The notes under the pieces are model-generated. The model was not told where the DNA came from. It made no database searches and saw nothing but the letters and a program-made list of their open reading frames with translations. A stretch of 64,000 nucleotides of DNA from Pelagomonas calceolata. Taxonomy: Eukaryota. Location: positions 1,736,001 through 1,800,000 of the forward strand of contig CAKKNE010000006.1 in the NCBI GenBank assembly GCA_918797485.1, in the 5' to 3' direction. Positions 2,881 through 60,976 of the stretch are shown here, one piece after another (within the stretch, counting starts at the first letter, position 1; each line of letters begins with the position of its first letter). Made by a program: the position numbers and the translations under genes.

Positions 2881-3676
2881 GAAACGGCCTGATTTTCGTT
2901 GCGCTGCCCCTGGGCAATGAATCCTAGCACTGGACGAGCTACAGGCTCACACGGCTGCACGAAGCTCCAAACCGAGCCGGTGCTAGAAAAGATGCACCTC
3001 AGACTGAGTTCTCGCGCTGCCAATCCAATTCCCCCCCGGCGCAACGTCTCGGCTATAATTTGGGCTACCTTAGTTACATTATCAGTGTCCTCCAGGTATT
3101 GTTAAGTGCTAGGGGCGTTTTTAGGTTGGGAGAATAAGGACTATCGGGGCAGGGTTATATTTCTCGCCCCCACCCACTGGAGTCTTGTGTCTTGTCTCGT
3201 GTGTCTAAAACGAGTCCATCATTTTAAGTATAGTCCTTGATCGTCGTTGATCGCCGGCGGGCCCGGGTTTGGGCCCGGGTTTGGCACGCACAAATTTGAA
3301 CCCTTTACCGTGACCTGCCAAATTTTTGCAGTTGAGGACAATGACTGTATGCGGCAGCCTGGCATAGGTAGCGAAAGACATTCCAGGCCCTTCAGACTAT
3401 TAATCCCCCATGGCCGCCCAACACTATTATGCCTACCTAGGAGTGCCAGTTCCGCCGGCGGCCCGAATCCACTGAGTCGTGGTCGGGCCCGGGGCGGCTC
3501 CGGCGAACTCCCGGGCCGCCGGGTTCTGGCCACTGACTCGGAGCCTGACTCAGACTTCAGGCCTACTCAGGCTCAGGCTCAGGCTCAGGCTACTAGAAGG
3601 TCCAGCTAGCTAGTTCAGCTGCGCCCGGCTACGGCTAGCACGAGGGCCGTCGGTGCCTGGGAGATCTGTCGCTCAC

Positions 3677-3997
3677 GAAGCCTATCACTTGTCACATGGA
3701 TTCTACCAGTGAGCAGGTTGAGATACATCTTCAAGTAGAAGGGCATCTGATGCGCTCGCGTCCAGGGGGAGTAGAGAGAGAGAAACCTACTACTACTAGC
3801 CCAGGGCCTTCACTGGCAACTTGAAGTTCCTACCCTAGATGTGTATCTCCCACTCTCTAAATTTGAGTCTATACATTGAGTGTCTATTGACGCTACGGTG
3901 TAAACCAATTTACCATAAAACACTCTCGTAGTTAGGTTGGCCCAGCCTTTGGCTGGTGAGCTAGGACCCTGCTACCTTACATAACGCTGCGACATAC
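3677..3997. repeat. Dispersed repeat family A, copy 1 (copy 2 at 34481-34773, same orientation)
   Basis: Both copies run from gaagcctatcacttgtcacatgga to ctaggaccctgctac(c)ttacataacgctgcgacatac, with shared internal blocks such as ccagggggagtagagagaga and tatctcccactctctaa. Confidence 0.9.
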
Positions 3998-4077
3998 CGT
4001 GACTATTGCTACCTAGGTATCTTTGACTCTGCGCCGGTCGTAAACACAGGAGAGTCTTTAATGTATTTTTTTGTAGC

Positions 4078-9296: not shown

Positions 9297-9954
9297 TTCT
9301 TGGGGCAAACTCGGCCGATGCTCCCATTGCCTCGCGGCAATCTGCTCTTGTGTAACTGACGTACTAGGGAGCCTGACGGCCGGGGCTTACCGGTAGGCTC
9401 CTCGTCGCCGCGCGCTTGGGGTCTGGCTGCCCTCAGGTGCGCCACACGAGGCAATCGTTTCAAGTGCGCGGCGCCGGCCGGTTACTCAGCCTCAGGGGGT
9501 ACTCTAGAGGTGTACTGGCGGCGTGCGGAGGAATATGGCCCCGAGCCCCAGGAGGTATGCCTGGACTGTGTACTGACACCGGTGAATTGCGAATTTAGCG
9601 AGAAGTAATTATGGGTGGGGGCCGCAATCGCCGAGTCCCGGTACGGTGGGCCTCTGCGGTGACTTCTGCGGTGGGCCGAGCCACTATAATTTTGCTCTCG
9701 TGTGATAACTTGCAGTTCTCTTACTTGCGGACCCCTGGGTGTGTATTCAGGTCGCCAAGCAGTCATAAAGCAGTTCGCATTGACGCGACCCCGTGATTTT
9801 ATGAAGAGTGCCAAGATCAACGAAACACCCGACATTGGACGACGCTTTGGCGTGCCTGGAGCTTAATTGTTAGCTTAACCCTGGTAACCTTCAACACCAT
9901 CTCGGTAATTTTGCTCGCTTTTGGGTGCATTCTCTGCTTATCTCACGGGGATTG

Positions 9955-12866
9955 TTAATTTGCCACTACCAAGCTAGCAGCAAAGATCCAGGAGAGACTC
10001 AGAAATGGGGTTCTCCTGTCGCTGTGCGAATCTATCTTAAACGGATACCAGACATCATGCGGAACTGATATGGCAACAGGGGGAGAGGGCGGTGAGTAAT
10101 CAACAAAATCCGAATCCTTCTTGACAAAGGTCGCGGTTGCTGTTATTGAAATACTCTGACTTGTGCTAGGGACTGTGCTGTGATGGTAATTAATATCAGA
10201 AGTACCAAAGCTTATCCGCGCTCCGATAATTTTTGCCTGGGGGTTACCCTGTGCACCGACATATGTCCATATAAACCCTAAATCTCCCGTAGCTCAATGT
10301 AGAAGAGATCTAGTACACTCACGGTAGTTCATGCTCGTAATTGCATTTTTGCAACTTCCACTGCGCTCTTGCCAGTCGGCGTCATTGCGAGTCGGACGAG
10401 GAAGTTTCAGCCATTGTGAATTGTCACGTGGGTCCGCTGCATTCCCAAAAATTCCAACCTAATGTATTTCTCAGGCTGATGTCTTGTTGTAGAAGGACTT
10501 TGGACATCACGCGGTAGTCTGTCATTTCAAAAGCTGCATTGAAAATATGCGATGTATTGAAGTATCGCCTATTTTGTGTACTCTCAAGGGTGATAATATG
10601 TATTCTCGCTGTGAACATACGGCAAGCCTTTTCCTGCAGCGTGCGGTCCATTGCCAACCTTGAAGGACAAGCTCAGAGTGACGAATTGTTTGTTAGGCAA
10701 AGGGGAGATCTTACGCAAAAGTCACGCAGTTCTGACCGATTTAACTTAAGTAAGCAACCGGAATGAACATTTACGCCAAAAGTTACCTGTGATGTCAACG
10801 CTCAGTTAAAGCAATTTATTCAATATCTGTCAAACCATATTGATCTTGTGGTCTGTGCAAGCCTCATCAGCAATAGCGCCAAGCACCCCGAGGTAACCAA
10901 TCCGATGGGGTATGACGGGGATAGGGCGTCCAAATATATAGCCCGGATTACCTGATTTCATTGACGGAGGAACATCGGCATCACTTCTGAACTGAACGGA
11001 ATACTCCTGCTGAACGACAACTAGACCATCTTCGTCCGTGACTGCAGCTGGAATGTCAGTCAGCACCTATAACTTCCATACTTGTTTTGTCCATATCGTA
11101 TGTAACACGCTTGCTTGCAATGGTAGCATTAACTGCCACAATTTGTTGTTTTCCTTTGTTTTGCACGTCCCCGTTGTGATGTATTGTATACTTGATACTA
11201 GCAATGGTATTGCGACATGCTGGAGCTGGTGGCCTCCGGGCATCTGCTATTAAGCATGGTGTTGTCGATTCTTCTGAGCTCAGTGCAGATGTAAGGGGCT
11301 CCGTGCCACTGTCATAGATAGATTCACAATCTTTGCCCTGGAAAGGACGGCTCAATTCTCCGGTTGTAAAGTTTTGCCAACTCATGTGGTCAACAGCAAC
11401 CTGTGTGATAAAGGAGTACATAAGAGAAAGAGAGAGTTCGCATGGACTCGTGACTGATGTTGGCACATTTACCCAGTTACTTCCCGCGTCCGACATACTT
11501 CCGTGGCTCGTAGTAAAGCTGCTCCCGACACGTAGCTTTGTAGTAAAGCGGCTAATGCCAAGAATACCAATCTGACAAGCTCGGCTCAGGCTCTCGGCGT
11601 CGAAAACCCGAATGCACTTGGTTGTTGTGGCCCTATGACATATACTTAAATACGACTTTATTCTATAAACAGCCACTGACGTTGCAAACTGGGCCAGACC
11701 ATACTCAGAGCACCTATGTTGCCTTGTTTATTTGCTTAGTACCCAAAGAAGACGTGCTCTCCGAGTTGTGTGTTCGTTGGCAATGGAAGACTCCCGGCAA
11801 AAGCTGCCACCTGGCCAGCAGATTATGATTTATGATGTAACGAGGCAAAGCATTGACCGCACAGCATGCGCAAACCAAAGCAGAATCTGCTTCAATGCTT
11901 GAAAAAACAGCACCAATGGAATCGCCGGAATCGTAGTATCTATCCACTATGACCTGCAACAAATACGTTAGCATCACATCATTGGAAGCCACAACACAAT
12001 CACAACTGGCAGGCTTGCTTTCCATTGGGAGTAGCCAAGCTCGGTTTGTGCAAGCTCTTTGTCGACGGTACTTGCGCTAAGCAAGTTAGGATCCTAAATG
12101 AGTTGTGTTTTGAATATCGCGATCCCGTCTGGATGAACTTTGCTTGAGATGGGCACCTTGTAAAATTTTCTTTGGGAATTCGAGTTGTCATATTGAACGC
12201 AGAGCATTCGGTCTACAGAACCTCGCGCGGTGCCTGGGTTGCACAACTAGTCAACTATCCTCCCTTCCCTCATGTTCTGCTTGCACTGAGTTGGTACCTC
12301 GCGTCGATAGAGGAAATTTTGGGTTGACCTGATCCACATCCTTTGTTGAATAGCACCTGGGGTCCGCCGCATAATGATTCGACGTAGTCAGTGCTGGCAC
12401 TGCCGCGCCTGGTTATCTCTCCATTTTGCGTTCCCTCGGGCAGACATGCCTGTATTGCATCAAATCTTTGCCTCTGTGCCTCATCGCACTCCTTATCGCA
12501 ACAGCAATTGTGGTCACATTCACCTACAAGGTAAATTTACGGTAACGTAGAGCCAGACTGTTTACCAGCGGTCAAATCGCATATGCAAGTGCAGTCAAAG
12601 ACTTCGCAGTCACTGTCTCCGCGTCCTGTCTCCCAACAATCACAACTTGGCGGCACCCCGCGATTTGTAGCATATGCATCCCCGGAGGAGCTTGTTGCGG
12701 GCGGATATTTCGAAGACTGGTAGGTAATTTCAGTCGTTTTCGAGAACATAAAAAACGGCCATTCTACCCTGTACTCTTCACTTAGGTTGCAATCTCGCGT
12801 GAGCATACATAGAGCCACCACCCAAATCGTAGACAACCGTTTCGAGCTTTGTTTGATCGGCCCCAT
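9955..12866 (-). CDS. TCTN: Tectonic-family ciliary transition-zone protein, multi-exon
   Basis: Signal-peptide-like start, Cys-rich CTCICDLTAG|ECDHNCCCDKEC, SGNPGYIFGRPI, and C-terminal LPVRFPHDVWYPF followed by a hydrophobic tail, all tectonic hallmarks. Internal exon boundaries are approximate. Confidence 0.85.
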
Positions 12867-13702
12867 CGTACAGTTGCCGGTGCACGCCTCTATAACAATA
12901 CCGTAGGTACCATGTAGGTACAAATACATATATATCCTTAGCAAGAGAACGCCGTAGCGTTGTATAATGTAGCAAGGGCCCTGGGCTGCCTCGGGAGAGA
13001 GTTTCGCGGTACCCGGCGTGAGTATTGGATAAAAGTTGGTCTATCATGATAGAGGCAAAGCCAATAGAACAACTGCGACAGTGCCAGTGTCCGAGTCACG
13101 GTATACTCAACTTCAATTCGAACTTGGACTCGGAATCGTAGTAGCCTGAGTGGGAAGATACATCCTTGGGAATAGGCTAGAGGGTTTCCTCTTTCTACTT
13201 CCTCTGGGCGGAACGTCCACCTCAGGCTATTCTGCCCGGGGCCCTGGGGCCACGGCGCCATGACTAGTACTAACCTCAGGCTGGGTCACGATACCGTATG
13301 ACCGTATAGCACTGCGGCGGCACTGGGCCCGGGTCTCCGAGTTCGGGTCCGAGTGCGACGTCTGTAATTATAGGACGGTGAATACCTGCGAATGAGGCAA
13401 GAACCAAAGGGGTACCACGCACCTTCAAGTTCGAGTTTCGGAGTCACGGTGCAGCGGCTGAGACGGTCCGCCGGAGAGTTCAAGTTACTAGTACCCTTCC
13501 GAGTCCGAGTCAAGTTCGAGTTAAGAATATGCGGCTCTTCTCAGGCTCAGGCTCGGGCTCCTTGAGATACTCCAGTACTAGTGCTCCCCGGGCTCTCTTT
13601 GGTTACAATTACCGAAGTACATGTACCGCAGGTACATGTACCTACGATACCTACCAGCTTGAGTACCGTAGGTACGTTCCCAGCGCACTTGTGTTGCTCT
13701 CA

Positions 13703-16700
13703 ATGTCCTCTCCGAAGATACGTTGGAACAAGCCTCGTTGTCACCCGAGTGACAGTGAGACAAAAAATGTCCCATGCGCACGCTCGGGTCACACCTTGTC
13801 GGTGATTGGCAACACTGGATTCCTGTTCGGTGGGCTGAGTGCAGGCTTGCATGACAAAATAGCACGGCCACTCAATGAATTACACATTCTTAAAATGGGT
13901 AGCTCAGAATTCGAGTGGTGCCTACTAGAGCTTGCTGATGGGCAAAAGCCTTTGGCAAGGTGGCGTCATTCTGCCAGCATCTATGACGGCACCCAAATCA
14001 TTATTTTTGGAGGATACTATACAGCCTCTCTCCGTCTGTCAGATGTGTGGGTGTTCGACACTGTCGCCATGGAGTGGCAGCAGCCGCATTTTGATCAAGA
14101 TCCTGGTTTTATCGCTAATGGTAGTCATCCTGCATCAAGCACTTGGCCAGGTCTTCCTGCCCCTCGTGGAGGTCATTCTGCAACTCTTATTGGGCATTCA
14201 ATGTTCATATTTGGCGGTTATGGCGGCCACGGTTCAATTTGGCGTCTGTTCTTTCTGTTCTTTGCTGCAATATACTTAATCGCTTCCGTGCCGCAGGTTA
14301 CGCAAGACGTGACCTTGATGATCTTCACTGCCTTGATGTTCGAGCGTGGACATGGTCGCGGGTTATTGCGAAGGGACGGTGCCCAGAGCGGCGCTCTGGC
14401 CACCAATCCTGTGCGGTTGAAGCATCATTGTTCATTCTGGGGGGCTGGAATGCATCACAACAGTTTGATGATCTTTTCATAATGGAAACTAAGCTGAATC
14501 CACCAGTATGGTCTTGTGTTGAAGGCTCTTTCTCGGCGCCGCGATGGAATTTCGCAGCCTGCTCTGTAATGGCGATTCCTGCTTGGAAAGTGTTTGTCTA
14601 TGGCGGTCTTGAGGGAGAGTTAGATGGTGATAACAATAGACAAGGTGTGCTTTGTGGGGATATCACTGTTTTAGATGCGGGCCTTAATCGCTGGACCTGT
14701 CCTTTAATTGATGGTCATGTCCAACCCAAAGCCCGTGCAGACTCAGTCCTCGTCTATGACAGCAAGTCTTCCAGGCTCATCCTTTTTGGTGGATGGGCAA
14801 ACGAGTGGCTAGGAGACATATTTACGCTTGATGTGGCACACTTAGTAGGTCCCCCATATGCAATCATGGATCTTTATCCTCAAACTGGGCCAATTACTGG
14901 CTCAACCGCTTTGCAAATCACCGGAATTGACTTTGTCAACACGAAAGACGTTGTCGTTCGTTTTTCTTCTCAGTTTGGCACAGTTGATGTGCATGGAGAA
15001 TTTCTCAGCAGCACGCAATTGGTCTGCACAGCACCAGACTTCAGTGCTTACCCTGCAGGTGCAGTTGATGTACGGGTTGCTCTAAATGGCGACAGCTTTA
15101 CCACGACATCTCAAGTTTATACATTTTTTGCTGTAACTAGTGCGCAGAATTCTCTCATATTTGGCCCAGGGCTTTTAAATGGCGGAGCTTGCAACGAAGA
15201 GACCATGTTTATTATCCAGGCCAAGGACAACTTAAATTGCAATCGTACAACGGGAGGCGATGAATTCATCGCGAGTATCAACCTTTTGGGCGGTGGTGAG
15301 AATGGTGAAGATGTGCAGCTTCGCAATGGCGTAGAAGTACGCGACAATGATGATGGAACCTACTATGTCGGTTTTACAGCTCCTTCTCCCGGAACTTATA
15401 TGGTAGCGGTTGAATTTTTAGGCACGTTTGGCGGCTCCCCGGGGCAGGTACGAGGGAGTCAGGTTAGTGTACATTTTGAGGAATTTGTCCCGAGATCGAA
15501 TAATGCAATGACAGGAAAGCTCGTTTCCTTGGCCGTGCAACAGGACATCCAAACTCTAGCGGCGTTCTGCAAGTCAGTTGCCACTGGTATCCAAGCAAAG
15601 CCTAGTGACAATGGCTGGACAGACTTACAGAATCAAGCAGCATTAGTATCTGTAAAAGAGCACCTAAATATGATCCAGGAAATGAAGCAAGAAATTGATC
15701 TTTTATTTGACCGTCTCGAATGCATTCTATCGCATCATAAAATGCAAGGTATCAATATTGGGCCACAAGAAAAACTAGTAGAATCGTACCGCACTTCTTG
15801 GGAAGCCTCACAGCGTGCAGCCCCGAGCATATTTCTCAAAATAGCTCCACTTGTTAAGGCTGAAGGCACTAGAACAAAGGGCGAGTTGCTGGACTATGAA
15901 GCTCGGGTGCGTGAATTCCAAAAAAGTGTTGAGTCTGCACCTTTTGTACTCTATGAAACAGGGACTTTCAAGGCTATGGAGCTTCTTTCTTTGATGATTG
16001 CTGCTTATGAGGAAGAAGAAGAGCGCTGCAAAAAAATGATTCACCTCTCAAAAATGTTTGAATGTCCAGCTGATGTAGCTACATCCAGGGACTTGCTTTC
16101 TTCTGCCGGGAGAATGCTGAAGAGTTATCAGGAGGTTTGGGCATGTGCGAGAGAATGTGATACTTATATTGAAGAAGCTGGCAATCTTCTTTGGGATGAC
16201 CTAGACGCAGATGGACTTGAGGAGAACGCAAGATTAATACTGACAAAGGTAAAGCAGCATCCTGCCTCTGTAAAGCAGTCGGATGCATATCTTGGCCTTG
16301 AGCGTACAGCAAAGGAATTTCTGATGACATGCCCGGTGATTTCTAGTTTACGACAACAAACTATGCGTGATCGTCACTGGGACGAGATAAGAAAGATCAC
16401 CGTGGTAAGCACCGTACTGGGACAACCTAGTGCTTTCCATGGGATGCGGTTAGCGGATGTTTTGAGCTTAAAGCTCCACCTGCACATAGCCGCTATTGTC
16501 GACGTTACTGACAAAGCCTCGCGTGAAGCAGCACATGAAGAAACACTACGGGCTCTTTCTATAACCTGGGATAATGTAGACTTTCGGGTGGTGTACTACA
16601 AAGACACTGATGTGCCTTTGTTGAAGATGACAGAAGATGATGTCGATCAATTAGAGGCTGACCAGCTTACGTTGCAGAGTATGGTCGCAAGCCGCTACGA

Positions 16701-19700
16701 TCACTTCAGAGCACAAGCAATGGAATGGCAACGCGCACTAGTTGCAGTTTCTGAAGTTGTGCAAATGCTATCCGACATACAACGCACGTGGTCCTACCTA
16801 GAGCCACTATTTATAGGATCAGATGAAGTGAGGCGGGAACTTCCCGAAGATGCAATGCGATTTACTATGATTGATGAGCAAGTTAGAAAAACATTAAAGA
16901 CAATGGCTGATGTTAAAAATGTCAAACAAGCATCTCAATATCGAGGGCTTATAGAGCGTCTTGACAGTATTAATTCAGACCAGGACCTTTGCAAAAAGGC
17001 ACTTGCAGACTTCCTGGCAGGGAAGCGTTGCAAATTCCCCCGGTCAGCACTCTCAGTGTCGTCGATCACACGATCACACGATCACACGATCACACCTGAT
17101 GTATAGGTTCTACTTCACAAGCAGCCACCCACGTCCATTGTTTCAGCCCAATCATAAGGAATATAATTCTTACAGGTGAAGCGGACCTTTTGGATATTCT
17201 TTCAAATGGGTCCTGCCCAGCAAAGGTTATGCGCCACATCAATAAAGTTCTTCTTGCAACAGCTAGCTTGCGTCTTGAAAGCTCGTCTGCAAGCAAGCCA
17301 CGTGCAATTAGTTTTATATCCGGCGTGGGCGAAGAGCAAGTGGATTTTGAGCCAGCCGTATCCTTGGAGGGCAAAGTAGAATTTTACATGCACACGATTC
17401 TCACTGCTCAGCGAGACACATTACAAAAGAACCTTGAGAGATCCCAAAAACGTTACCCTCTGAGACCAAGAGCAGAGTGGTTACTGGAATCAAATCCAGC
17501 TGGTTACTCACTAGATCCGGCACAGATTGCAATATTGGTTGCAAGTATTCAATCGGTCATGGTAATCGAAGGAGCCATGGACAATAATACACTTGTACTA
17601 TACTCTGATCGACAGAAGCAAGATCTCATCGATCTAGTCAGGCTGACACAAACAAACCTGAAGGGTAGCGAGCGACAACGCGTGATGTGCCTAATTACAA
17701 TGGATGCACACACGCGCGACATACTTGGTAAATTAATCAAAGAAGTCTCCGTTGACAAAAATGATTTTCAATGGCAGTCACAACTCAAGCACCGTTTTAT
17801 TGAGAAAGAAGAAGCTGGCCTAGTGGTTGCTTTGACAGAGATACATGTTTGTGATGCTCGTGCGGATTGAGCCTCCTGGCACCCGAGTCTTTTCAGGCCT
17901 TGAAACTGTATATATTCCTTTGCTTGTGTTAGGATTTAGCTATGGTCTGGAATATCTCGGAAATGGTCCCCGCCTTGTCGTTACTCCGCTTACAGACCGG
18001 TTTTATGTCACTGCGACGCAAGCACTCCATCTAAAAATGGGTTGTGCACCCGCGGGTCCTGCCGGGACCGGTTTTCAAGATTAGTGTTTTATTCGAGTTG
18101 GTAATTGAGTGCAAATCTATCAATCACTAGGCAAAACAGAGACAACGAAGGATCTTGCATCTGCGTTAGGAAAATGTTGCTACGTATTCAATTGTCAAAT
18201 GACAGTGCCTATGTCAATTGTCGATTATCCACGTGTTTATCTGAAAACCCAGGTTCTCCGGAAATGGACTTCCAATCACTAGGCAACATTTTCAAGGGAT
18301 TGGCTGCAAGTGGCTCGTGGGGCTGCTTTGATGAGTTCAATCGACTCATTCCTGCGGTTCTTTCTGTGTGCACTGTTCAGTTTAAGGCTGTCTGCGAGGG
18401 CAACGCTCGCTTCGAGCACAATGAAGTCACCACTCACGTCATCTTGATTGAGGGTGACCAGGTCGACCTAGATCCGACTTGCGGCGCATTTATTACAATG
18501 AACCCGGTAAGAAATCATACATTTCTACTGGCGGTGAGGACTTCACGTGGCAGGGATATTTGGGGCGCTCGGAACTGCCTGAGGGTCTCAAAGCTTTATT
18601 CCGCCCCATGACTGTAATGGTGCGTGCGTGTCCTTGCGAAACCCCCACGCCAAATTTTTGAGTTCTAGGTGCCAGATCTAGTGTTGATATGTAGAGAATT
18701 CGCGTCTATATTCAAGTTATGGCTTTCTTACATCTGATACTATCCTTCTCCAGGCGAAAACATGCTCATGGCCGAGGGATACGTAAGTGCTCGAAGCTTA
18801 GCATCAAAATTCTATGGGCTATATTCATTGCTGCGTGATTTACTTTCGAAGCAGTCGTATTACCTACATTGTTGTCCTATGCACATTAGCACAACAAATT
18901 CAACTTGATAGGCATTATGACTGGGGTCTGCGCGCTGTGAAATCAGTCCTTGTCGTTGCAGGGCAGCTTAAAAGGGCCGAGCCAGAGCTGCCAGAAGATC
19001 AATTGTTGATGCGTGCCCTTAGGGATTTTAACATCCCTAAAATTGTCCAACAAGACGAAATCGTGTTTTTTGGTGCGTGATGTGCTTTGTATTTCATGCT
19101 CAAGCTCAGCAAAAACAGGTCTGCTTAATGACTTATTTCCCGGTGTCAATCCACCACGAGTAGTAGACTCGAGCCTTGCCACTTCAATCATCAAAGCCAT
19201 CGAAGAATCTGATCTTTGGCCTGATGAACATTTTACTCTCAAAGTTGCGCAGCTCGACGAACTGTTGGCGATCCGGCATTGTGTTTTTGTCATGGGCCCT
19301 GCAGGTGCTGGGAAATCAGTGACATGGAAGATGCTGGCCCGCGCACGTGACGATAAAGACCCACAGCAAAAAGTTTATATTGCACATCTAAATCCTAAGG
19401 TGATTCCAACTGAAGTTTTATATGGTCACATCATGCTTCAATCACGTGAATGGAAAGATGGACTGTTGAGTTCAATTATGCGAGACCTTGGACAACTTGA
19501 AGATGACAAACCCAAATGGTACGTGCACTCTCCCATTTAATCACAATCATACGCCCCCAGGATAGTGCTTGATGGTAAGTGAATCACTCGTCTGACCTTC
19601 CCGCCCCCCTTCGCTGCAAAGAGCTATCAAGATGCGCCCCACGCCCCCTTTATCAGACGTGAGGTAGCATTGTGTTTTAAGGTGATCTTGATGCAAATTG

Positions 19701-22700
19701 GATTGAGTCAATGAACTCCGTATCAGCCAGTGTCCACCTTGAGTGTAGTATGCACTAAAATATTATTCGCCACTGCAGGTAATGGACGACAATAGAATGC
19801 TTACCCTAGCGTCCAATGAACGTATTCCCCTGAAGCCATGTATGCGGATGTTGTTTGAAATCCGTGACCTTTGTTTTGCCACACCAGCAACAGTAAGCCG
19901 GGCAGGGATTATTTACATAAGTTCCGACGACGGGAATCTGTGGCATTCAATGATAGCCTCATGGGTACAGTCACAGCCGGATGAAGTTTATTCGGCACAA
20001 AGCAAGTCGGCGAGATGCGACGTTGATTTTGGTCTTGATCCTTGAGACACATCTTCTTTACAATCAGGTATTAAGCGACCTTTTCCAGAAGTATGTTTTG
20101 CCAAGCTTGAAGTACTTGCGTGACAACTCAAAAGCAGTCGTCCCTATTGTGGACATGGCGTTAGTCTCAGGACTTTTGAAAATGCTAGAAGGCGCAATTG
20201 TTGCTGAGACCGCCAACGACCGATTCAAATTAGAAATGGTTTTTGTTTTCTGCGCTATCTGGGCATTTGGATCTGCACTTACTTTGTCAGATGACGGTCA
20301 CGACAATCAGGCGGATTTTAGTGAGTGGTGGAAATCTCAATTCAAACAAGTGCGTTTGCCAACACGCGATACTGTGTTTGACTACTGGCTTGATCCAATC
20401 TCGAATAAATTCGAACCATGGCGACAGAACCCTTCATTTCATGCAGTAAATTTTGACTCGCGTACAGCTAAAATGAATGAGGTCACAGTTCCCACAACTG
20501 AAACAGCCAGTATTTGTCATTGGATCAACCTTCTCGTTCAGTGCCGCCAACCTGTGCTGCTTGCTGGGCCTAGTGGTCGACCATGAGATGCTAAGCTAGG
20601 CAAAAGAGAGTCTATTTCTTCTGGCCATTGCTGTGGTGCACACTTCTTCGTTCAGGTACTGGGAAAACGCAACTCGTCACCGGCATACTGCGCGAATTAC
20701 TTCCTACTGAGTTTTCGAGTGTGGGCATCAATATGAATTATTACAGCACGGCAACCATTCTAATCGGCTCATTGGAGGCGCCACTTCAGAAAAGAACCGG
20801 GTCAACATATGGAGCTCCTGGCTCAACTCGACTAATATATTTTATTGGTGCGTGCTGGTTTCATTTGATACCAATGCCATTCATTGTGTGTAGATGACTT
20901 AAACCTACCGTGCGAACCACTGCCGCGAAGAATACTCACCTTTTTCTGTTGTCGAGTGGGAAAGTAGTCGCTGGGGTGGTAAGCACCGCATGGTACTACA
21001 CTGCTAGGCAGCTAGATAAATACAATACACAATCTGCAATTGCCCTGATGCGCCAACACCTGGACTATGCCGGCTGGTATGATCCAGTCAAGCTCACCCT
21101 CAAGAGTGTAATTGATTGTCAATACATGGCATGCATGAACCCAACGGCCGGATCCTTTTTAGTCAATCCGCGTCTTCAACGGCACTTCTCAACTTTTGCC
21201 GTTGGCATGCCAAGCGCCACCAGTCTGTTGACAATATTTCAGACCTTCCTGGATGGACACTTTCAAGCTGAGCAATTCCCAGCCAATGTGTGCAATCAAG
21301 TATCAAATCTCATCAAGGGGGCACTTGCATTACATAAAGAGGTACATGATACTTTTCGTAAGACGGCGTCAAATTTTCATTATGAGTGCAATCCAGTGTC
21401 ATCACGTATTATCTGGGCCACACTACTTTATGGTCTGCTCTTCACAGGTTCAATGTGTGCGCATCGGTGTCCAGACGAGTTTCCCGCGGCAGCATGAACA
21501 CACAGACGTCACCTGGCAAGCGTCTTTGGAGGTCTGTTACTCGCTCGCTCCCATGTTGCGCAATTTACTATACCAGATAGTATTGTATTTCTCTGGATCC
21601 ATGAATCTGAGCGAACTTACGGCGATAGACTTGTCTGCGAATCAGATGTCTTGCGATTTCGGGCAATCCTTCAAAGCACGGCCAAAAAGGCATTCCCAGC
21701 AGTAGGAACAGCCCACCTCTGGGGAGATCATGCTACAACTCCCCTATGCTTTTCTCATTTCCGCGACGTCGCCACCCTTGATTCTCCAGCATACGGGCTA
21801 GTAGAAGATATTGATGCACTACGGAACTGTTTTGAGCGGGTCCTCCGCGATTATAACGAGTTTCATCCTGCTATGGATCTTGTTTTGTTTAGAGACGCGC
21901 TCTTACACGTGGCGCGAATCACGCGAACCATATTTCAGCCCGGGGGGCACATTCTTCTAGTTGGTGTGGGTGGAAGTGGCAAGCAAAGTCTTGCGCGCCT
22001 ATCTACTCACATATGTGGCCATGCGTTGGTGCGCATATGCATAACCTCAAGTTATGGACTTGGGGACTTTAGATTGGATCTGCAAAGCATGCTCACTCGT
22101 TCTGGCACAAAACCGGAGGGCATCGTCTTCTTATTCACAGACTCTCAGATAATCGACGAAAAGTTTTTGGTTTATCTTAATGACCTACTCGCTGGGAGTA
22201 TTCCTGATTTATTTAGCAAAGACGAACGAGATAACTTGGCATCAATGGTGGAGGGTAAAGCGAAAGCAGCGGGCCTTCCCGCAGACACTGCATCATGTTG
22301 GGAGTATTTCTTAACACAAGTTCGAGCCAACCTTCATGTTGCTGTGTGCTTCTCTCCAGTTGGCCCTGATTTTGGGACCTATGCAAAGCGTTTCCCAGCA
22401 CTCATTTCTGGAACCACAATCGATTGGTTTCAACCCTGGCCGAACGATGCTTTGGAATCTGTAGCTGAGAAGCAGCTAAGCGATGTAGAATTCAAATCAC
22501 CTGCCCTGCGATCTGCAATTGAGAGATTTATGCCTCTGAGCTTTGAAATGGCAACTAAGGCGGCTGTGCGCTACAAAAGAGAAGAGGGCAGATTTGTTTA
22601 CTTAACGCCAAAGAGTTATCTTGAAATGCTTGCCTTGTACCGCACACTTCTATTGCGTCGGCGTGAAGAGAACGAGACCGCAACTATGCGCTTGGAAAAC

Positions 22701-25700
22701 GGAATATCACGCTTACGAGAAGCAGCTTCCGCCGTCGGAACACTTGAGCTGGAATTAACAGCAATGGTACAAGCAGCTGATGAAAAACGAGAGCACAGTG
22801 AGGCTATCGCTGCGAGGGTGGCATCTGAAAAGATGATTGTGGAGCGAGAGACAGATAAGGCAAATAGCGAGGCTGCGAAAGTGGCCAACATTCAAGGAGA
22901 AGTGCAGCTCCAGAACGAAGATGCCGAGCGTGACTTGCTTGCTGCTGAGCCTGCAATTCGAGCTGCCACCGCAGCTCTTGATACATTAGATCGACGAGAC
23001 CTAGGTAGCTGCAAGACAATGGCCACCCCGCCGAGCGGCGTTGAAGATGTTTTTAGTGCAGTCTGCGTGCTGTTGGCTGGGATAAACCCAGCAATTGCCG
23101 TCCAGCGCAATGGCAAGGTGAAAAAGGAGGGTCGCAGTTGGGATGCGTGTAAAAAGTCACTGCTCGGTAATATCAATGGCCTAGTTGACGAACTGAAGCA
23201 GTATAAAGCTCTTATAGATAAAGAATGTGTCCCAAAAATTAATTTTAATGAGGTAAGACCATACCTGCAGATGGACCACTTCAATGAAGATGCAATGAAC
23301 AAAAAAAACTCAGCGGCAGCAGGCCTGGTAAAGTGGGTTGAGAATATTGTTCGTTATTATGACATCTGGCAAGATGTGGAGCCTAAGCGTATCAAAGTTG
23401 TTGAGTCAACACGCCAGCTAGAAGCAGCTAACTCAGAGCTAGCTGTGGTGCGCGGAAGAGTCAATGAACTCCAGGCACAACTGCGACAACTTACTTCTGA
23501 ATTTGAGCAAGCTGAAAAAATTAAAAGAGAAGCAGTAGATATTGCAGAAAAGGGCCAACTTAAGCTCGAATTAGCCCAGCGCTTGATCAATGCTCTGGGC
23601 TCTGAGGAAGTAAGATGGGTAAAAGGCGTGGAGCGATTTCGTTTCGAACGAGACCCACTGGTTGGAGATGCTCTTGTGGCGGCTGCATTTATTTCGTTCC
23701 TTCCAGAGTCTCATGTTTTTCTTTGCGTGAATTAGGAAGCCCAAGCGTGACTTGCATTTCAGGTATTGTAGTTTGCGGTGCACTGAGTATTATTGTTTTT
23801 GCCAGCAGCAAAAAAAGTGACTTTTGAAATCAACTTCACTTTGTCAGACCCGCATCACCACACACAATTTTCACTTCGTGCGATACATCGCATTCATCAG
23901 TATACTTTAGGTGGCCCATTCAACAAAAAGTTTCGAGATGAACTTCTCCTCGAATCGTACATACCGTATCTACAAGTAGCTGTAGCAGGCAATTCTGTGC
24001 CCATGCGCCAACTCGATGCTACAACAACAGTTGTGACCTTAATTGCCACTGAAGCGGACGTCGCAGGCTGGAATTCCCAGGGACTCCCCCGTGATCCGGT
24101 CTCCTCCGAGAACGGTGCTATCGTCACTGCCTCAACGCGCTGGCCACTAATGATTGACCCGCAGCTCCAGGGGGTAGCCTGGGTCAAGGCACGGGAATCT
24201 GGGCGTTTGCAGGTACAGAGACTTGGACAGACAGAGTTGATACCTGGGCTGCGATCAGCTATGGCTGGAGGTACTACTATTCTTATTGAAAATATTGGAG
24301 AGCAAATCGACGCAGTCCTGCTGCCCCTCCTGCAACGCGCGATCTTGACAAAGAGAGACCATCAATATATTGCCCTCGGCGATGATGAGGTAGAATATTC
24401 TCCAGGCTTTCGACTTGTCCTACACACAAAACTCTCAAATCCGCCAAACCAGCGCATTATAATTTCCCTCGTAACCACGTCATTGTATCCAAATGGCATT
24501 TAGGCACTATCCTCCAGAGTTGCAGGCCGAACTGACGCTTGTAAATTTTACGGTTACACCCCTTGGGCTGGAAGACCAATTGTTAAGCCTTGTAATCAGG
24601 AAGGAACGCCCAGACCTGGCAGCCAGGAAAGCAGCTGTGATCCACCAAGCGAATGAATTTAAGGTCAGAATCAAACAACTTGAGGATGACATTCTAGTGA
24701 AATTAAGTACAGCAGAAGGTGACATTACAGAAGACCGCGCGCTCATTGAAGGATTAGAGAGCGCCAAGCAACAGAGCCTGGACGCATCGGCAAGACTCAG
24801 TGAAGGGAAGGAGATCAGCACTTCCATCAACAAGACTGCAGAAAGATACCGAATGGTAGCAAAGCGAGGAGCCACGATTTTTTTTCTGATGAATTCCCTA
24901 CACTGCATCCACACGTAATTTGGACCTGATACTTCACTACCGCGATCGCGTGTAAAATAGGTACTACATTTACAGCTTGAATTCATTTGTGGTTATGTTT
25001 CTGCATGGCATTGAACTAGTGCATGATACAGAGCGCAAAGCCAAAGCACCTAAGAAACCCAAAACCATGCTTTCTAAATTAAAATCAGTGACTGCCAAGA
25101 TCATTCAAATGCAACGATTCAATTGGAATGAGGATCTACTCCATCAATCTTTTCTTGCAGGAAAACAGGATTTCCTTTCACTCAGCACACGAGCACTTGA
25201 GAAGAAGACCGCGGAAGAAAAGAATGACGTTTCAGAGGAGGACTTCAATCATAGATGCTTGAGTCTTACAGCTTCGATCACGTCGGTTCTTTTCAGGTAC
25301 ATAGAACGTGGAATTTTTGCTCGTGACCTGCTTACAGTGGCAACACTTCTTTCATTCGCAGTAGCCGAAGCTTCAGATACGCTCGAACATTCTTTATTTC
25401 TTTGTTTGCTTTCGCCCGTCAAAGCCCAAGGGGGAGCTGCTGGAGGCATGACTGAAGATGTGGGCGCTTGGTTACCAGTATTGGTTTGGTCACAAATCAA
25501 GGGATTGGAGAAAGGGGCTGTCGAAAATATTGGATTGGTTGCATTTGAAGGGCTGGGGGATCAAGTGAATAGTGATCCAGATGGATGGCACAAATGGTAT
25601 GAGCATCCAAAACCAGAAACGCAGCCACCACCAGGGGGTTTAAAGTCTATTACTGGGATCTCTATGCTAATTTTACTACGAACTATGCGGGCTGACAGAA

Positions 25701-27730
25701 TCCCAGCTGGACTACAAGCCTATGTTGCATCTATGCTAGGCCCCGCTTTTTCTGAGCCACTGCCTTTTAACATGCTGGACACATACACAGAAAGTTCGGC
25801 CTCGACTCCAATTTTTTTCGTGCTTTTCCCCGGTGTAGACCCTACACCCTGGGTGGAGTTGCTGGGGTCAAAGTTTGATGTCAACTTGCGGAAAGGGACA
25901 CTCAGAAACATTTCTATGGGCCAAGGACAAGAATCACCCGCGGAAGCAACGCTTGATGTGATGGCAAAGCAGGGAGGTTGGATCATGCTTCAGAACATAC
26001 AGCTGATGGAATCGTGGCTGCGCAGATTAGAACGCAAGCTCGAACTGGCCAGCGAAGCAGCTGCGATGAATTTTCGTTGTTTTCTTAGCGCAGAGCCTCC
26101 GCCGCTCCCACATCTCTGTAACATCCCTGAAAGTCTCTTACAGACTTGTATCAAAGTGGCAAATGAAGCACCAGCAGACTTCAAGTCAAATCTGCAACGT
26201 GCATGGGCCTGTTTTTGTCAAGAGCAGCTGGATGATTGCAATCATGCAACGGAATTCAAAAAATGTCTTTTTGGTCTATGCTTTTTTCATGCCCTGATAC
26301 TTGGCCGCCGTCGATTTGGTCAACAAGGCTGGAGTCGTGCATATGGATTCAACACAGGGGACTTGAAAATATGCGCAAATGTACTAACAAGCTATCTGGA
26401 TGCGGCACCCGAACACGCAGAGGGGGGAGGTGTCTTGGTTCCGTGGGACGATCTTCGTTACATATTTGGTGAAATTATGTATGGAGGACATATAACAGAT
26501 TTTTGGGATCGTAGAACAAATGTTTCATACCTGCAGTTTTTTTTTAACCAGAAACTCTTGGAGTCAGGAAAACATCTTGCCCCAGGATTTCCACTGCCAA
26601 ATGGCAACTTAGATCACCAAGAATACGCCACTTACATTGAAAAAGCGCTCCCCATAGAAACACCTGTCGTTTTTGGCCTTCATCCTAACGCGGAAATCGG
26701 ATACTTGACATCTACAGGCGAACAAATTTTGGGGACTGTGCTACGCTTGCGCAAAGGCGGAACTTCAATCCCGGATGGGAGTATTGCAGTTGGGGGTGTG
26801 CGTGAGATCCTGGATTCACTAGTAAAAAGACAACCAAAATGCTTTAATCTAATATTGACTCATGAAAAAGCCAAGCCACTTTTGACCAAATCGGTTGCCC
26901 CCTACGTTGTTGTTGCCACTCAAGAGGCCACGCGAATGAATCTTCTTGTTGAAGAAATTTCTCGTAGTCTTGGCGAGTTGCACAAAGGCTTAAATGGCCA
27001 ATTGAATATGTCCCAACAGATGGAAGACCTATCCACGGCATTGTCGCTTAATGAGGTCCCAGGCCGCAATCCATTTCACTTAGCATCTTGGGAAAAGTTT
27101 GCTTGGCCCAGCAGAAAAAATCTTCAGCATTGGTTTTGTGATTTAGAGCGGCGCATCGAGCAACTCGTGAATTGGGAAGAGAGACTTGAATTACCTCGGT
27201 CTTTGTGGATGAGTCTGTTCAACCCCATGGCATTTCTCACAGCTGTACAGCAGGTTGTGGCTCGAAAGCGAAGTCTGCCGCTTGATAATATGACTATTTC
27301 CACCGACGTCACGATATATCGTCGCCCGGAAGACCTCAACTCCTTGATAAACGAGCCATCAGATGGCGCTTTTATTCACGGACTATTCATGCAAGGCGCA
27401 CGATGGATGACAGTCGAGGAAGCAAGCGCAGCAAATCAAACTAGGCTAACTTCTGGTGTAAAATGTGCCGGTGTCATAGTCGACAGTCATGCCAAAGATC
27501 TCCTGCCTCCGATGCCCGTTTTGTATGTCAAAGCGGTCTCTGTTGAAGCAGAATGGGAACCCACGTCAATCGGTTATCTACGTCCAAACATGTACAATTG
27601 CCCATGTTATTATACTAGTTTCCGTGGTCCCACGTATGTATTTCTTGCCACTTTGGACACAGAAGAACCCGCCACTAAGTGGATCAATGCCGGTGTAGCT
27701 TTGTTGTTGAGCTCAGACGATCACCTCTAG
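13703..27730 (+). CDS. Axonemal outer-arm dynein heavy chain with N-terminal Kelch repeats, IPT/TIG and filamin-type Ig domains (alpha-HC/ODA11-like), about 25 exons
   Basis: Kelch repeats (ARSGHTL..FLFGG, ARWRHSA..IIFGG, PRGGHSA..FIFGG), IPT ([10 protein letters not shown]) and filamin ([15 protein letters not shown]). Motor motifs: P1 [81 protein letters not shown]. Confidence 0.95.
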
Positions 27731-28139: not shown

Positions 28140-28460
28140 GGAGGGGATCTGGGGTAAATAACCCGCTCAATTACCCGACGGGTTTTCGACTAAACCCGTT
28201 TAGTGAGATTAGCGAAAGTCCCCTCCCGGACGAGCGGATGGGCGCAAGCAGCCCGTTGAGCTTTTGTATACGTACAGGTGCGCCAAGGCAAGTACCAAGT
28301 CATGTGGCCCGGCGCGGCCGCCCAGGCCCGCGCCAGTGGCCCTTGAGGCCCCCTCCCCTACCCCTCTATAAGATCCTGAGGTAAATAACCCGTATTAACC
28401 GGTAATTACCCGGGTCACGGTAATTACCCCCGGACGGCGCCTGGGGTAATAACCCCTCAG
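28140..28460. repeat. Dispersed repeat family D (inverted copy split across ~33913-34150 and ~34430-34455)
   Basis: cccctcccctacccctctataagatcctgaggtaaataacccgta(t/c)taaccggtaattacccggg and gagcggatgggcgcaag occur at 28230-28415, and as reverse complement at 33950-34100. Confidence 0.85.
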
Positions 28461-33636: not shown

Positions 33637-33912
33637 GGATACTAATCAAGCCCGGCTATATTAATCATACCCTTGTTAATCCTGCCTGGGAATCATATCA
33701 AAGGAAGATAGGATCAAAATCAGAGGCTCTAGGCCAGCAAATAGATTGCGGGTGTGCACGGGACTAGCCATTTATGTCCGCAGCGTGACTACTAGTCCCA
33801 CTTTGACGACCACGAGAACGGGGATGGTGTTGGCGGCCCCCGGGCCCAAACACCTGACTAGCCAAAGTTCTTTCTTTGTGCGGGGCGCGCCCGGGCTGCT
33901 AGGTTCCCACTT

Positions 33913-46800: not shown

Positions 46801-48311
46801 TTGGCGCCCTATGCGAGCAGAGAGATAGCAAAGCCTATACCTTCACCTACCTACGGTACGTACCGTAGGTACCGTAGAGATACCCGTACCGTACCGTACC
46901 GTACCGTGGTACCTACAGACTGCATTTTACCCTGCCGCAATGAACAAATTCACGCGATATCCAACTTGAACGCTGTGAGGCGCCACCAGCCGAAATAGGG
47001 CCGAAATAGGGGCGGGAAGGGCTACAACGACCTACAACGACCCACAACGACCCCCTCCCCCTACCACCTTGGCCACATTCACGGTCCCCGCCCGATTTCG
47101 GTTGCCGTGAGGCTCCGCAGGGTTTGGTATCGTAGCGCAGCTCAGATTGCGGCTTCTGAAGGGGTTGTATTTGTCCTCAGTCCCAAAAGTCGTCGATTTA
47201 TTTATGTGCCGCGTACACCGAGAACCTCGAATCGGTCTCGCGACGCTAAGACGGACACTAAGATACGCCCAGATGACCGTAGCTTCGCCCGATCGTACAG
47301 GGTAGCAGCTGCGCGGAGGACAGCTTTGCGCACGCCCGGCGAGATTTCGTGCGTACGAAGGTGGGGATTTGCCTGTAGCAGCTGGATCTTGGCGCTACTT
47401 GCGTTTTTTTTTTGCTGAAAAGCAGAGTATCCCGCATTTCAGGGCGCTCGGGCAGCCCGAGTGATACGGCTCAAGCGGGCGGCCATCCTCGCATCGTGCG
47501 GGATTATCTCGTCTATTCGGCCTTTTCTCGTAAGCCAGGATGGTAGGAGGTCGAAGTGCTGTCGAATGTCGATAATGCACTCCGTGCGAGTGTAAGACCA
47601 GAGGGGTACGCACCTTTGGGAATACCGTGACAGCCTGAGTGGCTTAGACCAGCTCTTAGACCGTCCACGGCGGGAGACCGTGACTCCGGGGAGAGCCACC
47701 TTAAAATACACTCCTAGTTTTGTTTAACGGTGTTTACGGTTTTATTTCGAATCATGTGTGGTGTGTATGAGTGTGTATAGGGCCGGGTATAAAAATAGGG
47801 GCCCGGTCACGGTGGGGGTGCGAACTTGTATTTCGTTCTCTAATCGCACTGGCACTCCGACTCCCAGTAGGAGACTCGGAGTCTGGCGACTACCCAGGCT
47901 ACTCGCCGCGACGAACTTCGATCTATCTGGTTGGATGCTTGCGATTTATCGAAGTGCCACGGGGTGCTGTGGCTCTAAGGAAGATTCAAAGAATGAACTT
48001 GAACTTTGTTGAACCCGTGTCCCGCCTGGGGGACTCGGAGTCACGGCCCAGTCTATGCCTCTATATCTATATTACCTCTGGTTTAAGTTTAGTCGAGGGC
48101 TGGTTCTCGGTCCACTATATAGTGACCGGAGGAAGTTGGATAGAGGAAACGGCGCTACTAGATTCGGCGCTTGAGGCCGTTTATCATCGCAGTTATGCTA
48201 GATATTCAACGTCAAAGTGCCTTCCCATGACTCAGAATTGTGGGAATCAACGCATATATTCCAAGCATAAAGTTTGTGTGCTCATTCCGCAATCGCGCTG
48301 ATGTACATTTG

Positions 48312-49293: not shown

Positions 49294-50944
49294 TTTGCTG
49301 TTGCTTGAGCTTACTTGCTGAACTGGATCGCTAGAGCTAAGGATCCCACTAGGGGCATCGCTCCTCCGCGAACAAATCCTGCTTTGTGAAACCTGAGCAG
49401 GAGGGTCTCATGCCGGCGCTAGAGTGAGTGGAAAGGGTGATATTTAATTCACCGACATTCCGAGGCACTGGCTGGAAGTCGCAAGTTCAAGTTGTCGCCT
49501 CCCCGGGCGCCGTCCCTCTACGCCGTCCCCATAAGCCGTCGCTACCAGAATACGCTAGGTAAATCTATTTCTTCAACACCGGCCTTAGCGCAATGGCCAT
49601 CCACTATCGCGGCCAGATGATCGTCGAGTTAGACCACGAGCCCACTCAGGCTTGCGAAGTGGGCCCGACGCTTACAAACTATCGAAACATCACGGGGTGC
49701 CATTGCGACGAGCGTGCTAGTAGGTGCCGTCGTGGCGAGCAGCGGCCGCCGGAGTGCATTAGTGACTTTCGACAGGATTTCTGCAATCCGGATCGGTTAA
49801 TGTGTGGGGCCCCGCAGCGATTTATAGGATCGTTAGCGCAGCTCAGGATTCGGCTTAGAGTTCCAAACGGTCACAGTTGTCCACGGCCCCAAAAAGCAGT
49901 CGAGATAACCCCATCGCTGGCGAAACGCCGAGAACTTGAAACGCCAAATCGGGCTCTTGCGACGCTAAGACGGTCACTTTGGCACGCCAAATTCACCGCG
50001 GCTTCGAGTGCGGCCTGCCAGTCATACGCGAGTAGCGGCCACACGGGGACACCTTTCAGCAACCTCACGTCCTCTACACCCCCAAGCTCGAGCCCCCAAT
50101 CTCCAGGCGATGGCGTGCTCCAACTATCGGTGTGTACTTATTGTCATGCTAATAGATTTTTGGTGTACAGCCAAACTGCCAGCGACAACCTCGGGTTTGC
50201 GTTGGAAAGTCCTAGATAAAAAGACTAGGGCCGCGGGCAGCGCACTTTACCCCAAACCTGCCGCGACGCAAATCGGACGTGGGCTGCGCTCTGTGGCAGC
50301 GCTTCGGCGCCAAAAGGTACGCGCATGAGTGGGCGATGTTGAGCGGCTGAACACAACTGATATGTGCTATGTTATGGCGATCTTCCTGGAGCCTTCTGAG
50401 GCCTCCCGGAGAGTAGGTAGATAGTGGCGGAGTTGTAAAGGGGGGTATTCGGGCTTTGCAGGGGGGTCGACAAACTGCGCGTCACGGCCAACTTTCAGTG
50501 AATGCGCGTTCCTGGCACCACTGCTCATCACGCGGTCCATTACGACGGGGTTGTGCCGGCTTGGGGTGGTTGCATGAGACGAAGTAGCCTAGTAGTACCG
50601 CGCGCCGCGGCGCTGCCACGGTAATTCAGTTTGTCTCCACTTGAATGCAAGTTGTTTCAAGTTGGAGGGGTCCTGGGGAGTAGTCGGGTTGTACTGTCAT
50701 GACGTCCCGGGGGAGTCAAATGCCTGCCTCTTGGGTGCGCTGCCAGGGGATGGGTAGTAGAGATAGGGCAGTCTAGGGTTGGGTAGATTGGAGAGGAGGG
50801 CCTGAGAGAGGTGCTTGGAGCCAACACTTTTTTAGTGTGGTTGGCCCTCGACAGCTCCCTAGATAGAGTATCAGTGGCCTCGGTAAGCCCCCCCCCAATT
50901 CTTACCCGCACCTTCTGTTGGGTACACCGTACCGTAATGGCCTC

Positions 50945-52724: not shown

Positions 52725-53257
52725 GTTGCCAGGCAGATAGCTCGATTAGTGAGATACCTAGCACAGCGCTGGTAGATTCTGTGTGTTATATGCGCATAGG
52801 GCTCGACAGCCGCACTTAAAGGCCTCAGGAGAATATCCCGAGCCTCCGGGCGAATATCGCCAGCAAAAAAAACGCCGCATATGTAGGGCAAGGCAAAAGA
52901 AGGGCAGCTTTCCTTCGGCATCTAGATACTAGTACTAGAAGTAGTTTGAACAGCCCCGGGCGGCGGCGGAAGTGCGGGGCATGGAGACAGGTACCTACTA
53001 GTAGCAGCTTGTGCTGGCGGCCAGTGTCCAATTTAAGTCCGAGTCACGGTCTGTTTTATTAGTTCTTCTTCCTTGACTGGAATAATCTAGTTCATTTCTG
53101 TCTCGCTGGCGACCTCTCTAGCCCTCTCCCCAGCTCCTCTCCCCACTGGCACTGACTGGTCTCTGACTGGCGGTGACTGGAGTGCCACCTGGCAGTGGAT
53201 TATGATGATACTCTAGATGCAGCGTGCTGGCATTCTGCTGGTAGTCAGGCGAGTGGC

Positions 53258-60312: not shown

Positions 60313-60976
60313 CCTAGCAATCGTCCATTTGAATGAAGGAAGTTAGTTTTAATTTATTAATTAAGCGGGACCTGAGAAAAGGAACAAGCTCCTAAAGCGC
60401 CTTCATCCTGCTTGGGGTAGGATGCCCAATCGAGCTTCAACTCGGACACGGCGATAAGGTCACGGTCACGTAACTTGAACCGTCAATGAACGATAGATGA
60501 TGACAGACACAGACGTAGCATTTTTTACACCTTTCGATATTTTAGAGGTCGATTAAGCCCCATTTGCTGCGCTCACAGGACAACCGACCTCTGATCTCCA
60601 AAATGATATAAAAAACGACAAGTAGTATATTTATAAACTTGGACGCTCTGAATGTCACGGTGACGAATATATTAATAATGCGCAACCTATATGCATGATC
60701 GCTAACCAGGTGAAGATAAACCTTGGTTCGCACCAACAGTATCTCATCGGCGTCGCCATGGCAAAACGACACCCATGAGGAAACGACAATCAATGAATCA
60801 TGATGGCCTTCAATTCAACTTGTGCCAGTGACACTCAAACCGCGCGCGGCCCGGGCCGGGTAGGGCGAATTGAACCTAAGCGCTCGAGAACTCGTCACGC
60901 ACTTTCACGGAGGCCTTTAAAGTAGGTTTTGGGGTCTCCTGGGCCGGTGGGCCCGCCGTCGCTGTCGCCCGCCCAT

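Follow-up and report, generated by a model that had tools for sequence, protein, structure and literature searches.

The non-coding DNA of the window, the whole stretch of 64,000 nucleotides analysed here, is crowded with short insertions that follow a single rule: a dinucleotide XY becomes XY-C-revcomp(XY)-G-XY, a gain of 6 nt at a site which may be any dinucleotide. Every word recognised in these tracts is a product of this rule, among them AA-CTTG-AA, GT-CACG-GT, CA-CTGG-CA and CT-CAGG-CT as well as GA-CTCG-GA, CC-CGGG-CC, TA-CTAG-TA and AT-CATG-AT. The rule is a real mutational signature and behaves like the footprints of hairpin-type excision, with a tip that sets it outside the hAT class. 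The insertions, referred to below as scars, are probably excision footprints of a cut-and-paste DNA transposon which duplicates 2 bp of its target and has C...G ends. No description of the rule was found in the open-access full-text literature, and it goes unmentioned in the accessible portions of two pelagophyte genome papers (one of them 10.1101/2021.10.25.465678).

A single rule for the intergenic words

Counting of rule 8-mers over the whole window gave 113 occurrences, against 17.8 expected from an order-2 and 33.8 from an order-4 Markov background, with all 16 dinucleotide forms present and C/G ranking top among the 16 cells of tip letters. A control with a free middle (XY-C-PQ-G-XY) was found 311 times in the window for 255 expected. 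With the strands pooled, the predicted core ranked first of 256 for 10 of the 16 dinucleotides, and 2nd, 3rd, 7th, 8th, 11th and 21st for the remaining six. The rule pattern also came first when 123 kb outside ORFs were scanned for T-a-rc(T)-b-T forms in general, the targets being 2-4 nt and the tips 0-2 nt long (355 vs 16.1 for 8 words), and loci beyond the window also carry it in excess (345 vs 18.7 and 144 vs 9.3 expected).

GGTCACGGT accounts for 6 of the 19 GTCACGGT sites and AACTTGAACTT for 2 of the 15 AACTTGAA sites, which places the outer letters outside the unit. The bases preceding and following the scars in the loci are near uniform, and around 328 isolated scars no base exceeds 0.31 at any of ten flank positions. 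A lesser excess is also present in the C..C, G..G and G..C tip cells of the loci, which we reason to be the product of a second hit within or beside an earlier scar; other tip cells are near background. A weak analogue with a 3-bp target (XYZ-C-rc-G-XYZ, with A/T in the target) was counted at 21 sites, vs 4-10 in seven control cells; none of these sites was seen with an empty allele.

An earlier sequence-only reading of this DNA had quoted many of the words, and they do occur at the positions it gave, with AAGTTCAAGTT beginning one base later. It had taken each word for a 3-nt target around a fixed core; the target is instead 2 nt, and the core, made of C, the reverse complement and G, varies with it. 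Its description of five non-coding tracts as packed with such words is borne out by 6, 17, 5, 5 and 2 intact rule 8-mers, where 200 dinucleotide shuffles of each tract gave means of 0.075, 0.2, 0.065, 0.125 and 0.005 and a maximum of 2. In a comparison of the kind that it proposed, intergenic DNA (22.3 kb) holds 96 rule 8-mers vs 7.7 expected, and genic DNA including introns (41.7 kb) 17 vs 10.7, the limits between the two being hand-drawn from ORFs and Pfam matches.

Of the 13 intergenic blocks, 12867-13766 has the highest density, 18.9 per kb, and three have at most one unit. Within tract 13040-13580, 6 of the intact scars lie in an LTR copy and 11 outside it, in unassigned DNA. If the minus-strand coding region starts near 12866, as is likely, block 12867-13766 would be a divergent promoter region, shared with a dynein heavy chain gene of about 14 kb with introns in which only two rule 8-mers occur (18711 and 19494). 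Neighbouring scars are spaced by 6 more often than expected, in 25 of 462 gaps vs about 5-12 at nearby distances. The coordinates of these and the other features are collected in Table 1.

Table 1. Scars, scar-rich tracts, genes and repeats of the window.
Feature	Position	Strand	Details
Coding region left of the tract	9890..12866	-	ORFs; start likely near 12866; no Pfam match
Dynein heavy chain gene	13767..27730 (start approximate)	+	Pfam Kelch, DHC_N2, AAA_8, MT, Dynein_C
Scar-rich tract	13040..13580		17 intact 8-mers vs shuffle mean 0.2, max 2; 1 more after peeling
Scar starts, first part of the tract	13043, 13082, 13090, 13095, 13127, 13143		AT, TG, TC, GT, GA, AG
Scar starts, middle	13221, 13275, 13326, 13424, 13443, 13479		CT, CT, GG, TT, GT, TT
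Scar starts, last part	13486, 13498, 13504, 13540, 13546		TA, TC, TC, CT, CT
Tract	3500..3610		6 intact scars, including a tandem run of four CT scars (CTCAGG x4.3)
Tract	47800..48045		5 intact scars (GT, CA, GA, AA, GA)
Tract	52920..53260		5 intact scars (TA, TA, TC, GT, CA)
Tract	60440..60480		2 intact scars (GT, AA)
Polymorphic AT scar	13043..13050		wild contigs have AT where the window has ATCATGAT; predicted by the rule and not among the words of the earlier reading
GT scar	28414..28421		missing from paralogous repeat 33899-34127
CT scar	49645..49652		missing from paralogous repeat 2535-2610
3-bp analogue XYZ-C-rc-G-XYZ	2306, 46103, 50585, 53626		also in the loci
Family A copy 1	3772..4012	+	compared with copy 2 (34476-34789)
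Decayed solo family A copy	12939..13197	-	score 74, shuffle max 36; 6 intact scars
TA-bounded 9-nt insertion	12899..12909		TA -> TACCGTAGGTA; polymorphic
Second TA-bounded 9-nt insertion	13664..13674		polymorphic; 9 letters missing at 13663 in 3 of 4 runs
TA-bounded words	12895-12925, 13600-13680, 46848-46907, 63085-63130		also in the flanks of many LTR copies in L001-L124
177-aa ORF of the 1,378-bp element	61380-61913	-	

The window is gene-dense and eukaryotic, with genes for tubulin cofactor D, CEP104, dynein heavy chain, RPB2, RPN1, a light-harvesting protein, PIP5K and Sec1. Its GC content is mostly about 0.45-0.55 and reaches 0.63-0.71 across much of 53-60 kb. Low-GC regions of Pelagomonas calceolata are described, in the accessible part of the genome paper, as having 52% vs 63% GC and as rich in dynein and RPB2 genes (10.1101/2021.10.25.465678), and the traits of the window match them. 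Positions 12000-18000 are found almost whole in marine metagenomes, 20 runs from 13 studies containing at least half of their words. The link of the words to a low-GC domain, also suggested earlier, does not appear in the rates outside ORFs: loci with GC below 0.56 (30) have 5.5 per kb, and those with GC of at least 0.56 (27) have 5.3 per kb (each locus above 1.5 kb); since all were picked by an LTR, these rates show only that scars extend beyond the low-GC region.

Some features of gene content and distribution were recorded alongside. Two GC-rich islands (0.59-0.71) in the low-GC region, 43087-45069 and 53258-57059, encode a GlcNAc transferase and an ankyrin/MATH protein. A 615-aa ORF at 35318-37165 combines EGF-like repeats with Peptidase_S74 (endosialidase chaperone), a phage-type domain in an algal gene. 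Viral contigs, which served as breadth test and control, had no scar-rich locus among 121 and 217 loci, a result with no bearing on other eukaryotes.

Insertion polarity, polymorphism and the +3 class

Comparison with empty sites reveals the direction of the change. At the AT scar at 13043, the 6 letters are missing in all four wild runs (X4, X10, X12 and X14, the first flagged as a possible source), and across orthologous contigs 7 of the 8 rows with a 6-nt indel fit the rule; counted as distinct events, 6 of 7 do, and the indels of any size between these contigs number 64. Within the window, one GT and one CT scar are missing from paralogous repeats (Table 1). The idea that the words are accumulated footprints which segregate as 6-nt insertions, put forward before any comparison, is thus upheld by paralogues, orthologues and the LTR copies described below.

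Family A is a 203-bp repeat with a purine tract in front, present mostly as solo copies. It is likely a Copia LTR, because in one locus (L045) a Copia-like RNase H region lies upstream of it, with an Atlas match to 'Copia protein (Fragment)' at 0.96; no full element was seen among the copies, and we take the repeat to bear a likeness to a primer site. A 26-base pattern taken from family A matched 125 stretches, and the 124 loci available for them fall into 103 clusters. When 103 LTR copies are set against their majority sequence, insertions are most often 6 nt long, and the rule fully reduces 20 of 24 distinct 6-nt, 3 of 5 12-nt and 3 of 3 18-nt insertions. A greedy undoing of insertions in 105 copies recovered 68 mirror-type 6-nt events, 59 of them with C/G tips, at 14 of the 16 dinucleotides; these counts are per copy, and some events are perhaps inherited rather than independent. 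The C/G-tip scars thereby amount to 59 per 767 substitutions (about 8 per 100), and the load is 4-5 per kb of non-coding DNA.

Scars are unevenly shared among the copies. Among 57 well-covered LTR copies, 37 have none and 11 have at least 3, where Poisson expectations are 22.9 and 3.7 (dispersion p=4e-10), and their number is unrelated to substitutions (rho -0.02). Such clumping, independent of divergence, fits either a few locally hopping elements or hot chromatin. In the decayed copy 12939-13197 the score rises from 51 to 68 once the scars are peeled, and purine-rich side remnants extend to about 13220. The extras which had been noticed in copy 1 relative to copy 2 are real and consist of three nested scars at 3811-3829 (TT, AA, CA), a CC near-fit with one substitution and two +3 TA events, to which an AC scar at 3996 can be added. 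One locus (L114) shares its right flank with copy 1, differs in its left flank and lacks the scars of copy 1.

A second class of event adds 3 nt. When the pairing of two XY-C-Y'X' overhangs is enumerated, +6 is obtained for all 16 dinucleotides, and +3 only for AT, CG, GC and TA, through a 5-nt overlap with one C:C mismatch. The 3-nt events have the form XY-C/G-XY at palindromic sites in 17 of 21 cases by script label, or 18 with one copy (L101) read by hand; the count of 18 has p about 1e-8 against a 25% null of random triplet duplications, and several of these events are not tandem duplications. Only 5 of the 59 +6 events lie at palindromic sites, which make up 51 of 202 sites (p=0.001), and the summed +6/+3 rate is equal at palindromic and other sites (23/80, p=0.44). 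Over all non-coding DNA the +6 scars per 1000 are 1.4 for CG, 1.7 for GC, 4.6 for AT, 3.9 for TA and 4.2-7.3 for the others, a deficit that is clear for CG and GC and mild for AT and TA, the latter being a point against the pairing model. The +3 class at palindromic TA also explains the 'tactac' remarked on earlier in copy 1 as two +3 events.

Proposed hairpin excision and competing explanations

The C and G are missing from the empty site and the flanks are unbiased, so both letters were supplied from outside, most simply as the terminal bases of an element with a 2-bp target duplication. The form of the scars argues strongly for a hairpin intermediate and moderately for a transposon behind it. 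Such an element would enter XY without sequence preference, giving XY[C...G]XY. At excision, the first nick would fall one base inside the element and leave its terminal C on each flank, after which the 3'-OH would attack the opposite strand at the junction and produce a flank hairpin with C at the tip. A host nuclease would open the hairpin 2 nt beyond the tip, and the resulting 5-nt 3' overhangs, XY-C-Y'X', would anneal by their last two bases and be filled in to yield +6. At a palindromic XY, alternative pairing along all 5 nt with one C:C mismatch would yield +3. Nested and tandem tracts would reflect repeat visits to the same few hundred bases, perhaps with slippage after the first scar.

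Among known superfamilies, hAT elements make an 8-bp target duplication, unlike the net +6 with a 2-nt repeat of the scars, and the Muta1/Transib/RAG group makes longer target duplications. PIF/Harbinger elements have a 3-bp duplication and G-starting ends, where the scars have a 2-bp target and a C tip. Tc1/mariner footprints, like the scars, leave element end bases between two 2-bp target copies; these elements are TA-specific, whereas the 6-nt class uses 14 of the 16 dinucleotides and adds a mirror copy of the target. The ends of CACTA/EnSpm (CMC) elements begin with C and their duplications are of 2-4 bp, with 2 bp in some CACTA/EnSpm/Kyakuja members. CACTA/EnSpm and Kyakuja-type elements are for this reason the best candidates for the source, as far as C...G ends and a 2-bp duplication can be read from the scars alone. 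Examples are Chlamydomonas Tcr3 and Tcr1, with superfamily names as in the accessible part of PMC9940879. No footprint rule for CACTA/EnSpm or Kyakuja elements was found in the open-access full-text literature.

Flank hairpins, their opening by the host and joining at microhomologies are established for hAT, Transib, RAG and Muta1, according to the portions available of two papers (PMC5873905, PMC5499845). The scars share with such footprints the inverted flank copy at the joint and products which fit overhang pairing. As excerpted from PMC5873905, Ac/Ds (hAT) scars resemble ours in their P nucleotides from flank hairpins, opening by a host nuclease and microhomology joining, and arms below 3 nt dominate in Candida hAT footprints. 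Ac/Ds footprints differ in being heterogeneous, with a palindrome centred on the complement of the element-adjacent flank base (same excerpts); our scars have near-uniform flanks, a constant C/G centre foreign to the flank, a 2-bp duplication and two dominant products, +6 and +3. As the flanks are not C/G, we discarded a hAT-like model in which C-XY-G would be a target of 4 bp. The available text of PMC5499845 describes for Muta1 (MULE), Transib and RAG a hairpin on the flanking DNA opened by an enzyme other than the transposase, as we propose; it also gives Muta1 excision as more than 90% precise, with no element base at the hairpin tip and a product of 43+43 nt, and Tc1/mariner elements as cutting without hairpins, all unlike the scars.

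The element itself was not found: the window and about 360 kb of loci, which together carry several hundred scars, showed none that combines C...G ends with a variable duplication of 2 bp. The search combined an inverted-repeat scan with duplication filters, clustering of repeat families, views of their ends, large indels between orthologues and contig ends; the inverted-repeat scan gave 179 candidates, and GC- and TA-word noise dominates among the matches listed. Contigs from short reads end where repeats are young, so this negative result carries less weight. No transposase family was matched in a Pfam scan of a small part of the genome, which covered 29 ORFs of the window and, in the loci, 73 of 77 long low-GC ORFs and 48 of 80 shorter ones, with 80 long high-GC locus ORFs outside the scan. 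Transposase_21/23/24, the CACTA/EnSpm (CMC) transposase families according to the accessible text of PMC5751038, were likewise without a match in these 29, 73 and 48 ORFs, which represent little of the genome. Nor did any site in the material compared show the empty, the filled and the scarred state together. Clustering of scars within about 200 bp also counts against a transposon, ordinary local hopping being looser than this.

As no element or transposase was found, a host enzyme of the Spo11/Topo VI type stays a rival, kept alive also by the clumped events and by the overhangs these enzymes leave. According to this explanation, which we consider unlikely, Spo11/Topo VI or a domesticated transposase would cut open promoter chromatin with a 2-nt stagger; the gap would be filled, an untemplated C added and the ends sealed to hairpins before opening and joining, all without an element. 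The accessible text of PMC11922745 reports SPO11 breaks with a 2-nt 5' overhang, and Topo VI likewise, in agreement with the 2-nt duplication of the scars, and SPO11 is reported in the likely host in the part available of 10.1101/2021.10.25.465678. Events also cluster by locus and not by age, as hot spots would. The G at -3 favoured by mouse SPO11, a bias reported to be plastic in the excerpts at hand, has no parallel in the flanks of the scars. TA-bounded words and decayed elements occupy the same tracts, so transposons do visit them. The enzyme would also need C-specific terminal addition at both ends and hairpin sealing, an extra step for a C which a transposon end provides directly; we know of no precedent for either reaction with Spo11 or Topo VI. 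It is doubtful that open chromatin is the target of a dedicated host mutator whose mirror insertions, of 6 and 3 nt, leave the frame intact. Were there one, promoter variation in one of the most abundant ocean eukaryotes would have a major source that has gone unrecognised.

Polymerase template switching or templated end-joining, copying two bases across and back, with slippage then expanding the arrays, seems improbable to us. The excess of spacing 6 (25 of 462 neighbour gaps) and the CTCAGG x4.3 array at 3566, which resembles a young microsatellite, speak for it, and slippage may indeed lengthen tandem runs, but it cannot start them. This process leaves unexplained the constant C/G missing from the empty site (59 of 68 events), the fixed 2-nt arm and the palindrome-only +3 class.

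The original proposal of several families (CACTA with CAC, PIF/Harbinger with GGG/GGC termini), each with a 3-bp target around a fixed terminal core, is very improbable: the weak 3-bp analogue speaks for it, yet one rule with constant C/G tips yields all the words, the cores follow the target exactly, the third base is not conserved and no 3-bp empty allele was seen. Ordinary transcription-factor sites maintained by selection in promoters, which had been named as the reading that would overturn a footprint origin, are hardly credible even though the words are almost confined to intergenic DNA, for scarcity in genes is also expected from selection against insertions, and the words are polymorphic insertions in retroelement copies, at 14 of the 16 dinucleotides, following one local rule.

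If the scars are excision footprints, they would spell out a cleavage geometry: a 2-bp stagger, a first nick one base inside the element and a hairpin opened 2 nt past its tip. No characterised superfamily shows this geometry in the portions of the literature compared. For elements that duplicate 2 bp, such as EnSpm/Kyakuja, it would be a sharp prediction, their chemistry not having been reconstituted to our knowledge, and the palindrome-only +3 product would make a repair intermediate readable from genome sequence alone. The scars are in any case a large class of mutation, as their ratio to substitutions in LTR copies indicates, and +6 and +3 both preserve the reading frame. Motif finders will mistake the scar words for promoter elements, and tandem scars may seed hexanucleotide microsatellites.

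TA-bounded insertions and other repeats

A second vocabulary, of TA-bounded insertions, comprises TACCGTAGGTA, TACCGCAGTA, TACCACGGTA and TACCAGCAAGTA, which are chained and polymorphic as 9-nt units; in the scan outside ORFs, TACCGTAGGTA occurred 87 times vs 0.1 expected. Such words stand on both sides of tract 13040-13580, and the 9 letters inserted at 12899 are missing in X10, X12, X14 and a minor X4 contig. At 12899 and 13663 the insertion lies between two TA copies, as in Tc1/mariner footprints, and the TA-bounded words are likely footprints of this type with bases of both element ends. A contig labelled as giant-virus (L125) contains a tandem TA-bounded word and none of ten counted 6-nt scar words. 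Typical LTRs end in TG...CA. The Copia-like LTR ends in TA...TA, and many of its copies lie within TA-word chains (L001-L124, and in the window 3772-4012, 12939-13197 and 34580-34780), which suggests that it targets these chains.

At 60977-62354 lies an element of 1,378 bp. Its 426-bp inverted repeats are perfect, both ends carry a palindrome of 28 bp and the termini are C...G; a 4-bp duplication (CCAT) and internal 71/99-bp and telomere-like repeats complete it. Its 177-aa ORF (Table 1) had no match in Pfam, PHROGs or Atlas. The element was considered as a source of the scars and rejected, since despite its C...G ends it makes a 4-bp duplication and no +10 scar class exists. An 850-bp repeat at 6961-7812, with a second copy at about 42300-42935, is skipped in contigs of two runs; its ends read TA|C...G|TA or show a GTAC duplication, and as other copies also end in G|TA it looks TA-specific. 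Finally, three sets of dispersed repeats, 28477-28810/37378-37711, 28202-28476/33899-34127 and 2535-2876/47215-47360/49619-50006, also occur in other loci.
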